The notes below the pieces were generated by a model. The model made no database searches and was not told where the DNA came from. It saw nothing but the letters and a program-made list of their open reading frames with translations. The position numbers and the translations under genes are program-made. A DNA stretch of 63,301 bases, counting the filler, from Reclinomonas americana ATCC 50394 (taxonomy: Eukaryota), in the NCBI GenBank assembly GCA_048213135.1. It is 44 parts of 44 records of this genome, joined end to end, with 100 filler letters (N's around TTAATTAATTAA, not from the genome) between each part and the next. Parts side by side here need not be neighbours in the genome. Positions count along the whole stretch, not along the records: positions 56,241 to 57,572 come from AFZH01025807.1; 43 more parts are not named here. The stretch is one strand, 5' to 3'. This document shows, in pieces, positions 56,390 to 57,531 of the stretch. Position 1 is the stretch's first letter, and each line of letters starts with the position of its first letter.

Positions 56390-57531
56390 CTTGAATGTCG
56401 GTAAACGCCACGGCCACGGTGCCGCGAGGAGCGTCACGAAGCGATTCCTTGAGTAGCTCCTCGACATCCTCGCCAAATAGATCGATCTCGAGGTTCTCCG
56501 AGCGAAGGCCGCCGTCGACGAACCACTGGTACCCTGAGAGCGTGAGCCACACAATGCCGGCCGTCCAGCACACGATGATGACGAGGGCGAGAGCCTGAAT
56601 TCCGATTTGGATGCCAACCGAGGCCACTGTCGTGCCCGAGCCGAACACTGCATGGAAATGTCAGCGCAGTGGTGCGACAGCATACTGGGAAAAAAGGGGG
56701 CAATACCAACAAACCGGCGGTGATATTGTTGGACCGATAAAAAATGCCGGCAGCCAGCAGTCCCCAGGCACCACCGAAACCGTGAATGGCCACCGAGTCA
56801 ACCTGAGTGACGTCCAATGAGGAAAGAAGGAAAATGAGGAGGAAGGCGAATGCGCGCGCGCGAGAGAGAGAGAGACTGACGCAACTGGATCGTCGAGGCG
56901 CAATTTGTACACCACCCACACTCCCCCGTGATAAAGACCACCGCCAATGGCTCCAATGAGTACGGCGGCCCACGGGTCGACAAAGCCACAGGCGGCACTG
57001 ACGCTGACCAGGCCAGTCAGAGCGCCATTGAGAGCCGAGGTCAGTTCGTAGTGTTCCGTCTTGAAGCGCACCAGCGCAATGCTGACTAGCGCCGCCGAGG
57101 CGGCTGCGCTGATGGTGTTGACCATGGAGCGGCCTACCGTGTGCAAAGGGCGTGATATAATGGCGGGCAGAGAAATAACCAGTGAGGGCAGGGCAAGGGC
57201 ACACACGCGTGTCGCACAGAGGTATTCATACATACACACACACACACATGCATATGCACGGGCACACAAAAGACCCACCAACAACAGATCCTGCGCTGGC
57301 GTTGGAGACCAGCGAGAGGAAGCCGGCGCCCGAGTGCAACGCAAACCAGCCGAACAAGAGAATGAGGGTGCCGAGACATTGAAACACCAGCTGCGTCTTG
57401 GCCCATTGTACGCGGATGAGCTCCACGGTGGGATCGCGATCCGCCGAGTTCGAGTCGCCATTCATGCCGCTGGTAGCACCACTCTTGGCCGTAATGGCCG
57501 TCGCCATGGTCATGCGATCGTCGTCGTCGTT
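56390..57531 (-). CDS. Amt/Mep-family membrane domain fused to the start of a class III nucleotide cyclase (exons 57531-57279, 57133-56886, 56802-56715, 56647-56390; partial)
   Basis: LGTLILLFGWF, MVNT..AAAS, LNGALTGLVSVSAACGFVDPWAA, KLRLDDP|VDSVAIHG, GIQ...LRSENLEIDLFGED, then APRGTVAVAFTDIQ(G). Confidence 0.85.

Follow-up and report, generated by a model that had tools for sequence, protein, structure and literature searches.

A spliced Amt-family gene fragment from Reclinomonas americana with a conserved in-frame extension, probably the start of a class III nucleotidyl cyclase

To our knowledge, the reuse of Amt proteins as ammonium receptors is established for bacteria alone, where the output is a histidine kinase or a diguanylate cyclase. 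In eukaryotic microbes, the sensing of external ammonium is largely an open question, which extends from fungal Mep2 signalling and chemotaxis in Chlamydomonas to the ammonium/cGMP repression of nitrate assimilation. Here, we describe an Amt-family gene fragment from Reclinomonas americana ATCC 50394 (assembly GCA_048213135.1), found in a window of 63,301 bases (the whole stretch of DNA that was analyzed), in which the Amt C-terminal region continues in frame into the start of a further domain. The closest described systems are the bacterial Amt-like ammonium receptors (AmR) Ks-Amt5 and Sd-Amt1. According to the available parts of the reports, 'Ca. Kuenenia stuttgartiensis' has turned the Amt fold to ammonium sensing in Ks-Amt5, which does not translocate and carries a histidine kinase as its C-terminal transducer (PMC5764959, PMC8534201); all conserved Amt motifs are present in it (PMC11152129). 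Sd-Amt1 of Shewanella denitrificans has the architecture Amt-HAMP-GGDEF; it is a c-di-GMP diguanylate cyclase with a HAMP domain, a linker of ~60 residues, and canonical pore motifs, as described in the accessible text of PMC11152129. The same text proposes an AmR signature for the N1/N2 binding site, QX6EX15NX2D[F/T]X54-60TX2[S/T], which belongs to the N-terminal half of the protein and falls outside the fragment in the window.

The window gene resembles Sd-Amt1, as far as that report could be consulted (PMC11152129), in that a cytoplasmic cyclase producing a second messenger, here a probable one, is attached to the C-terminus of an Amt module. It differs in being eukaryotic and spliced, in having a linker of only ~12-15 residues without a HAMP domain, in its probable class III output, and in an altered sixth transmembrane helix (TM6). 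Based on the gene structure, homologue searches, and profile comparisons, we consider it probable that the locus represents the 3' portion of a eukaryotic, spliced Amt-family gene whose C-terminal region is joined to a class III nucleotidyl (adenylyl or guanylyl) cyclase via this short conserved linker.

The gene fragment lies on the minus strand of a 1332-bp contig (56241..57572 in positions of the spacer-joined window; GC content 0.577). TM11, the Amt C-terminal region, the linker, and PRGTVAVAFTDIQ are all contained in one uninterrupted exon (exon D, 56647-56390). The first part of exon D (56466..56647) holds TM11, GIQALALVIIVCW (56565-56603), and the Amt C-terminal region, LRSENLEIDLFGED (56466-56507), past which the exon reads straight into VEELLKESLRDAPRGTVAVAFTDIQ. 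The second part (56390..56465) consists of the linker VEELLKESLRDA (56430-56465), PRGTVAVAFTDIQ (56391-56429), and a Gly codon of which only the first base is included. The visible reading frame ends as ...LRDAPRGTVAVAFTDIQ(G) and is followed by a (CA)n intron. Exon D closes with CAAG in phase 1, directly before the donor GTTTGT; because this is a consensus donor in mid-codon, the protein continues beyond the visible part. The sequence-only reading, made before any database search, had placed the run from the last Amt helix and the C-terminal motif into a new domain within this single exon, with about 15 residues of the new domain visible before a dinucleotide-repeat intron ends the contig, and both statements hold.

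An exhaustive phmmer search with exon D as the query against 1,835,955,588 representative proteins gave two matches at E <= 0.001, P0002 and P0003. P0002, a protein of 111 aa with 51% identity (E 2.9e-20), is encoded on an independent 919-nt contig of another organism and has no other members in its cluster. It shows the same order as the window protein, namely TM11, C-terminal region, linker, and ...VAFTDIQG, and it matches the end of the Amt family profile PF00909 (profile 337-396 of 399, E 0.035). From FGED to DIQ, 23 of the 26 residues are identical in the two sequences, whose overall identity is 49-51%; conservation is thus highest in the linker and strand, and TM11 is much more variable. 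P0003 was rejected as spurious; it is a repeat protein with only a hydrophobic word in common. Because the junction lies within a single exon and recurs in an independent contig, it is due neither to chance nor to an assembly chimera. The in-frame fusion of the Amt C-terminus to a further conserved domain is thus confirmed, and the pattern of conservation indicates selection on the junction in two genomes at least, or else in a pair of paralogues.

Exon D is preceded by three further exons on the same strand. Exon A (57279..57531) encodes at least 45 hydrophilic residues, corresponding to the cytoplasmic loop before TM6, and then TM6; exon B (56886..57133) covers Amt TM7-TM9 and ends with RLDDP; and exon C (56715..56802) contains TM10, with the second pore His in VDSVAIHG (56779-56802). 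Introns 1 (57134..57278, 145 nt), 2 (56803..56885, 83 nt), and 3 (56648..56714, 67 nt) all have GT...AG borders, and the phases hold one frame through exons A-D without a stop or a frameshift. For exon C, the donor at 56714 is the only one that keeps the frame with exon D. The partial intron 4 (56241..56389) begins with GTTTGT and runs into a (CA)n microsatellite, which appears as (TG)n at 56258-56367 on the plus strand, up to the contig end at 56241. Since a pyrimidine tract and an AG stand just before exon A and the frame is open upstream of it, exon A is more likely internal and the protein more likely a full Amt. Alternatively, translation could start at an in-frame ATG in an ACCATGG context inside 57496-57513 of exon A, which would give a domain anchored by the second Amt repeat only (TM6-TM11). 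It is very improbable that the locus is an artefact or a dead gene, that is, a chimeric contig, a contaminant, or a functionless pseudogene fragment. The assembly is extremely fragmented and mixed, and at least two contigs of the window look bacterial, which would fit such an origin, but four exons in phase over three GT-AG introns with an intact frame, and a junction that lies inside one exon and recurs at 51% identity elsewhere, speak against it.

The Amt identity of the fragment is based on Pfam and structural alignments. PF00909 matches exon B with 70.5 bits (cut-off 23.2, E 1.5e-19, profile 223-304), the open reading frame (ORF) containing exon B with 70.9 bits, and exon C with 20.9 bits (E 1.7e-4, profile 305-330). 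Exon A alone gave no Pfam match, and its TM6 part scored 12.0 bits (E 0.0042) against a small Amt hidden Markov model (HMM) searched among 1357 window ORFs. An antibody found with exon A alone in a Protein Data Bank (PDB) search was rejected as a chance match. Exon B aligned with residues 231-311 of the E. coli AmtB chain, and exon C is also covered by Amt alignments from the PDB. As RLDDP ends at AmtB residue 311 and the His of VDSVAIHG follows seven residues on, this His is the second pore His (H318 of AmtB); it lines up with the Amt His in both the PDB and the homologue alignments. The gene fragment encodes Amt TM6-TM11 and the Amt C-terminal region. It begins in the loop before TM6, and TM1-TM5, the first pore His, and the N1/N2 site lie outside the contig. 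No N-terminal Amt piece was found in the window, either by Pfam on 288 ORFs of at least 100 aa or by our own HMMs on 1357 ORFs of at least 25 aa.

A search for longer proteins with exon B gave four matches (P0005-P0008), each with PF00909 alone. In a MAFFT alignment, the canonical TM6 motif GWFGFNxGS is seen as GWFGFNGGS in P0007 and as GWFGFNAGS in P0008, whereas the window protein has GWFALHSGA (57325-57351, minus strand). This alteration of the pore entrance, as well as the retention of the second pore His, had been correctly recognized in the sequence-only reading. We take the changed positions to be F215, N216, and S219 of AmtB; the motif presumably holds a Phe-gate residue and the recruitment-site Ser. 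The altered pore-entrance motif suggests sensing rather than bulk transport. It is not proof of a non-translocating sensor, because Ks-Amt5 does not translocate although all the canonical motifs are kept in it, according to the available text of PMC11152129. The loop before TM6 in exon A has at least 45 hydrophilic residues, compared with 21 in Sd-Amt1 as given there (PMC11152129). A second Amt paralogue fragment is present elsewhere in the window (34707-35400, plus strand; PF00909 E 2.5e-35, profile 224-391). It is uninterrupted and contains WDDPLDVISVHG; its C-terminal region (MRMDETRELYGD) is canonical and gives way to a low-complexity poly-Gln tail, with no fused domain. Judging from this ordinary-looking paralogue, the organism also has a conventional Amt.

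What the fused domain is has to be judged from ~15 visible residues. The sequence-only reading regarded the FTDI motif as the opening signature of cyclases, and this does not stand as a diagnostic. When VAFTDIQG was back-translated and scanned in 185,579 prokaryotic genomes, it was found at 22 places, compared with ~26 estimated from the information content of the pattern. Pfam assigned three of the 22 frames to the glutamine-synthetase (GS) family, one to class III cyclases, two to DUF1501, and eight to other single families, and gave no family for the remaining eight, so that at least 11 unrelated Pfam families bear the string. In the cyclase, the motif is located at profile position 11. In the GS-family frames (Gln-synt_C E 1e-94 to 1e-99), VAFTDIQG forms the opening strand of the beta-grasp domain at the N-terminus (Gln-synt_N profile ~2-10), and the upstream helix (..EQLRAMVADGDIDTV..) resembles VEELLKESLRDAPRGTV of the window. 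These three actinobacterial proteins, which open the beta-grasp domain with the exact VAFTDIQG, are encoded at L005:1330-2793 (+), L010:234-1658 (-), and L016:955-2790 (+). When the 22 frames were ranked by similarity of their upstream context, the GS-like frames took ranks 1-3 and the lone cyclase scored 0. VAFTDIQG is therefore common to two unrelated enzyme families and not diagnostic of cyclases, and caution is required wherever an FTDIxG start is read as a cyclase, as it also opens GS-type enzymes.

An Amt-glutamine-synthetase fusion is a serious and biologically sensible rival. In such a protein, the fused domain would be a GS-family enzyme (GlnA4/PuuA-like, GSI-type), the helix VEELLKESLRD and the strand TVAVAFTDIQG would form the natural N-terminus of a beta-grasp domain, and an uptake-assimilation fusion would pass ammonium directly to an amide synthetase. 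Besides the likeness of the upstream helix, the fact that Amt and GS are functional partners favors this possibility. The degenerate pore-entrance motif speaks against a high-flux uptake module.

To compare the two families, N-termini of cyclases and GS-family proteins were gathered from prokaryotic genomes (loci of six genomes flagged as unpublished were excluded, and these genomes contribute to tallies only). The cyclase profile A2 was made from 25 members of the subgroup LP(T/S)GTVTFLFTDIEGST, taken from 29 cyclase N-termini, and its invariant columns are P17, G19, D27, S31, T32, G69, and D70. A3 and A5 represent GlnA4-like GS N-termini, with invariant D23, T24, D31, G34, and R35, and A4 represents GlnA1/2 N-termini. 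In hmmsearch, exon D scored 11.9 bits with the cyclase subgroup, 4.7 bits with the GS-like profile, and -0.6 bits with GlnA1/2; the corresponding scores of P0002 were 15.6, 4.4, and 2.1 bits. The GS-like profile accordingly falls ~7 bits or more below the cyclase profile with both the window sequence and its homologue. None of 20,000 shuffles of exon D reached 11.9 bits on the cyclase HMM (maximum 9.5), and the next-best window ORF scored 4.0 bits; on the GS-like HMM, 4.7 bits were matched by only 24 of 20,000 shuffles, which counts in favor of the GS-like likeness. Of the 1357 window ORFs, the exon D frame alone was matched by the full-length cyclase HMM (E 0.011), whereas with the full GS-like HMM it stayed at the noise level (6.9 bits, E 0.42, compared with 6.1 bits for an unrelated ORF). 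In hhalign, alignment A1 matched A2 with a probability of 89% over 23 columns and a P-value of 2.1e-6; the statistics of A2 are somewhat optimistic in that its subgroup (LPxGxV..FTDIxGST) was hand-picked for its likeness to the query. The GS-like profile followed with a probability of 62% and a P-value of 7.7e-5 (48% and 1.8e-4 without the pre-selected sequence); these values lend the GS possibility some weight, although P is ~100-fold worse than for the cyclase when the pre-selected sequence is left out. The GlnA1/2-type profile did not match (probability 2.6%).

Residue by residue, both the window protein and P0002 carry P, G, and D at the invariant positions P17, G19, and D27 of A2. At the nearly invariant positions V21 and G30, they have V (I in P0002) and G. 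The residue at D27 is a candidate first metal-binding Asp, placed in the FTD of exon D (56397-56405, minus strand) at the end of a putative first strand of the form F-x-D. As to the GS-like invariants, D31 and G34 are present, and R35 is Ser in P0002 and lies beyond the visible residues of the window. The invariant Asp-Thr pair (D23, T24 of A3) is replaced, D23 being Gly in both sequences and T24 being Thr in the window (G-T) and Lys in P0002 (G-K). No GS family was matched by Pfam in the exon D tails or P0002, and neither a cyclase piece nor a GS piece was found elsewhere in the window by the ORF searches mentioned above. On these grounds, the higher profile scores, the presence of the invariant Pro, Gly, and Asp, and the substitution of Gly for the GS-like Asp before the strand, a class III cyclase is the best-scoring candidate for the fused domain, and we judge the domain to be probably of this class. 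A GS-family enzyme is, in our judgement, quite unlikely.

Several observations weigh against the cyclase assignment, in addition to the low specificity of VAFTDIQG, the ranking of the upstream contexts, and the manual choice of the A2 subgroup. The profile sequences are all bacterial, with no eukaryotic cyclase among them. Only about 11-15 of the 183 positions of the cyclase profile PF00211 can be present in the ~15 visible residues, and no PF00211 match at E <= 10 was obtained with Pfam for exon D, its 21- and 27-residue tails, or P0002. PDB searches with P0002 and the 27-residue tail gave chance matches only and no cyclase. No relative of greater length was found for exon D at E <= 0.01 among 232 candidates, in a word-based, length-windowed search that is weak evidence. 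A search of the same kind with A1 gave none at E <= 10 among 1406 candidates, again as weak evidence. The cyclase fusion proposed by the sequence-only reading thus keeps the best profile match and goes without recognition by Pfam and the PDB; of the two Pfam profiles named there, PF00909 was matched by exons B and C, and PF00211 was not on the ~15 visible residues. In a metagenome scan with A1, one of 325 pattern matches had the appearance of a relative (L001); it lay in an alternative frame on a contig from a bacterium and was rejected as due to chance.

Some of these observations bear on a further possibility, in which the extension belongs to another family or to no known one, or the protein is an ordinary or degenerate Amt that ends in a short conserved tail of regulatory function. 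The likeness to cyclases and GS would then be convergence on a beta-strand that ends in F-T-D-I-x-G. A tail that is not recognized by curated models, a string shared by so many unrelated families, the stop of the P0002 reading frame 23 residues past FTDIQG, and a protein atlas search by features that returned no usable match would all be in keeping with this. Nevertheless, the near identity of the FGED-DIQ segment in proteins that otherwise have about half of their residues in common, the mid-codon donor, after which the protein continues, and a match to the cyclase-start profile far exceeding the shuffle and window-wide nulls make it unlikely. The second metal Asp (G-D), the substrate-specifying residues, and the transition-state Asn and Arg of a cyclase would lie in exons past the contig end.

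Here, we propose a mechanism for the putative Amt-cyclase that is modelled on the bacterial Amt-like receptors. The protein would form the usual Amt trimer. Binding of ammonium or a related small amine to the Amt module would shift TM11 and the C-terminal region, and the short conserved linker would relay this shift and reposition the catalytic domains. As cyclase domains of this kind require dimerization for activity, a pair of the three would associate and produce cAMP or cGMP. For the diguanylate cyclase of Sd-Amt1, such two-of-three pairing in a trimer has been modelled, according to the accessible part of PMC11152129. Sd-Amt1 and, by inference, the window protein share the same break of symmetry between a trimeric module and a cyclase active only as a dimer (PMC11152129, as available). 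Ammonium sensing by the window protein is inferred by analogy with these receptors. More tentatively, the protein may represent a new class of eukaryotic receptor-cyclase, in which an Amt module without a transport gate, as suggested by the degenerate pore entrance and the unusually long loop before TM6, directly switches a class III cyclase, so that a flagellated protist would translate the presence of ammonium or a small amine outside the cell into a cAMP or cGMP signal. Such a receptor might steer chemotaxis or repress nitrogen assimilation. In a bolder variant, with the start at the ATG in 57496-57513, the membrane part would comprise six helices with both termini on the inside (N-in/C-in), as in the anchors of membrane adenylyl cyclases.

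The genomic setting is that of a fragmented assembly. The window consists of 44 unrelated contigs of similar size (1332-1353 bp), arranged in order of length with N...TTAATTAATTAA...N spacers between them; gene adjacency across the spacers therefore has no positional meaning. Most of the contigs look eukaryotic, with microsatellites and with changes of reading frame from one short exon to the next, and Pfam on their ORFs revealed kinases, a Ras-like GTPase, an axonemal dynein heavy chain, and an H+-pyrophosphatase. The H+-pyrophosphatase is spread over three reading frames (introns); the H+-pyrophosphatase and dynein heavy chain contigs are 4356-5703 (-) and 53376-54708 (+), and the dynein fragment is of the inner-arm I1/DNAH10 type, with nearly equal scores against Chlamydomonas (347.5 bits) and mammalian DNAH10 (341.4 bits). 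Taken together, these two genes suggest a protist or alga that is flagellated and of neither animal nor fungal type. The contigs at 43327-44661 and 61970-63301 have GC contents of 0.68 and 0.67 and carry unbroken ABC permease (BPD_transp_1, OppC_N) and MFS frames. Because these two high-GC contigs with long unbroken transporter frames look bacterial, the assembly appears to be mixed or contaminated. A tandem 13-base unit (GGGGAGACGCAGT-like) was observed at 57673-57770 (minus-strand view) at a contig end, adjoining satellite-like sequence rich in GGGAA/GGAAG. (CT)n, (CA)n, and C-rich low-complexity tracts are found at the ends of many contigs, and the fragmentation is probably due to them.

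If the proposal is true, the gene would provide a directly testable receptor in which the Amt fold is coupled to a cAMP/cGMP cyclase in one polypeptide, and a compact ligand-gated cyclase for tool building. It would also extend the Amt receptors to a eukaryotic, directly coupled, class III output and constitute a new kind of eukaryotic nutrient receptor, as well as a new membrane module among the transporter-cyclase chimeras of protists. All of this depends on the cyclase identity of the fused domain, which is probable. In the literature searched, no published fusion of a eukaryotic Amt and a class III cyclase was found (by text searches rather than domain-architecture queries), and no paper was found under the motif strings. 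In the part of PMC9730499 available, one supplement has no 'Ammonium' or PF00909 entry, and its other supplements could list one.

Fusions of Amt modules with signalling domains were seen in a cyanobacterial sample of 61 genomes, with five Amt matches having open frames of at least 745 aa among those listed. The architecture Amt-HisKA-HATPase_c-REC-Guanylate_cyc was found in two of the 61 genomes (L165:389-3958 (+), 1190 aa; L168:401-3889 (+), 1163 aa). Another architecture, Amt-PAS-SpoIIE/PP2C, was observed in two genomes (L166:532-3117 (-), 862 aa; L167:478-3099 (-), 874 aa), and the fifth match has Amt alone in the retrieved part. No description of either type of cyanobacterial fusion protein was found in the literature searched. 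The cyclase-bearing cyanobacterial proteins are like the proposed window protein in that an Amt module and a class III cyclase are combined in one polypeptide. They differ in being prokaryotic and in the position of the cyclase, ~500 residues downstream behind a complete kinase-receiver relay. Owing to this relay between Amt and cyclase, the cyanobacterial coupling is expected to proceed by phosphotransfer and not through a direct linker.

Among eukaryotic proteins, the fungal 'transceptor' Mep2 is likewise an Amt-family protein proposed to signal ammonium availability. As described in the available parts of the reports (PMC4852598, PMC6837285), Mep2 differs from the window protein in that it has no fused enzyme, signals via separate partners and a regulated C-terminal region of its own, and still transports. 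The general design of the proposed protein, a membrane transport or sensor module placed N-terminal to a class III cyclase, is shared with several chimeras of flagellated or ciliated protists, none of which has an Amt module in the accessible descriptions. They include the K+-channel-adenylyl cyclases of ciliates, Plasmodium, and Chlamydomonas (CYA18; PMC9561859), the P4-ATPase-guanylate cyclases of alveolates and stramenopiles (PMC13466520, PMC6592433), and the rhodopsin-guanylyl cyclase BeGC1 (PMC9730499), all as given in the parts of these sources available. In each of the K+-channel, P4-ATPase, and rhodopsin cyclases, the membrane module is of a different fold.

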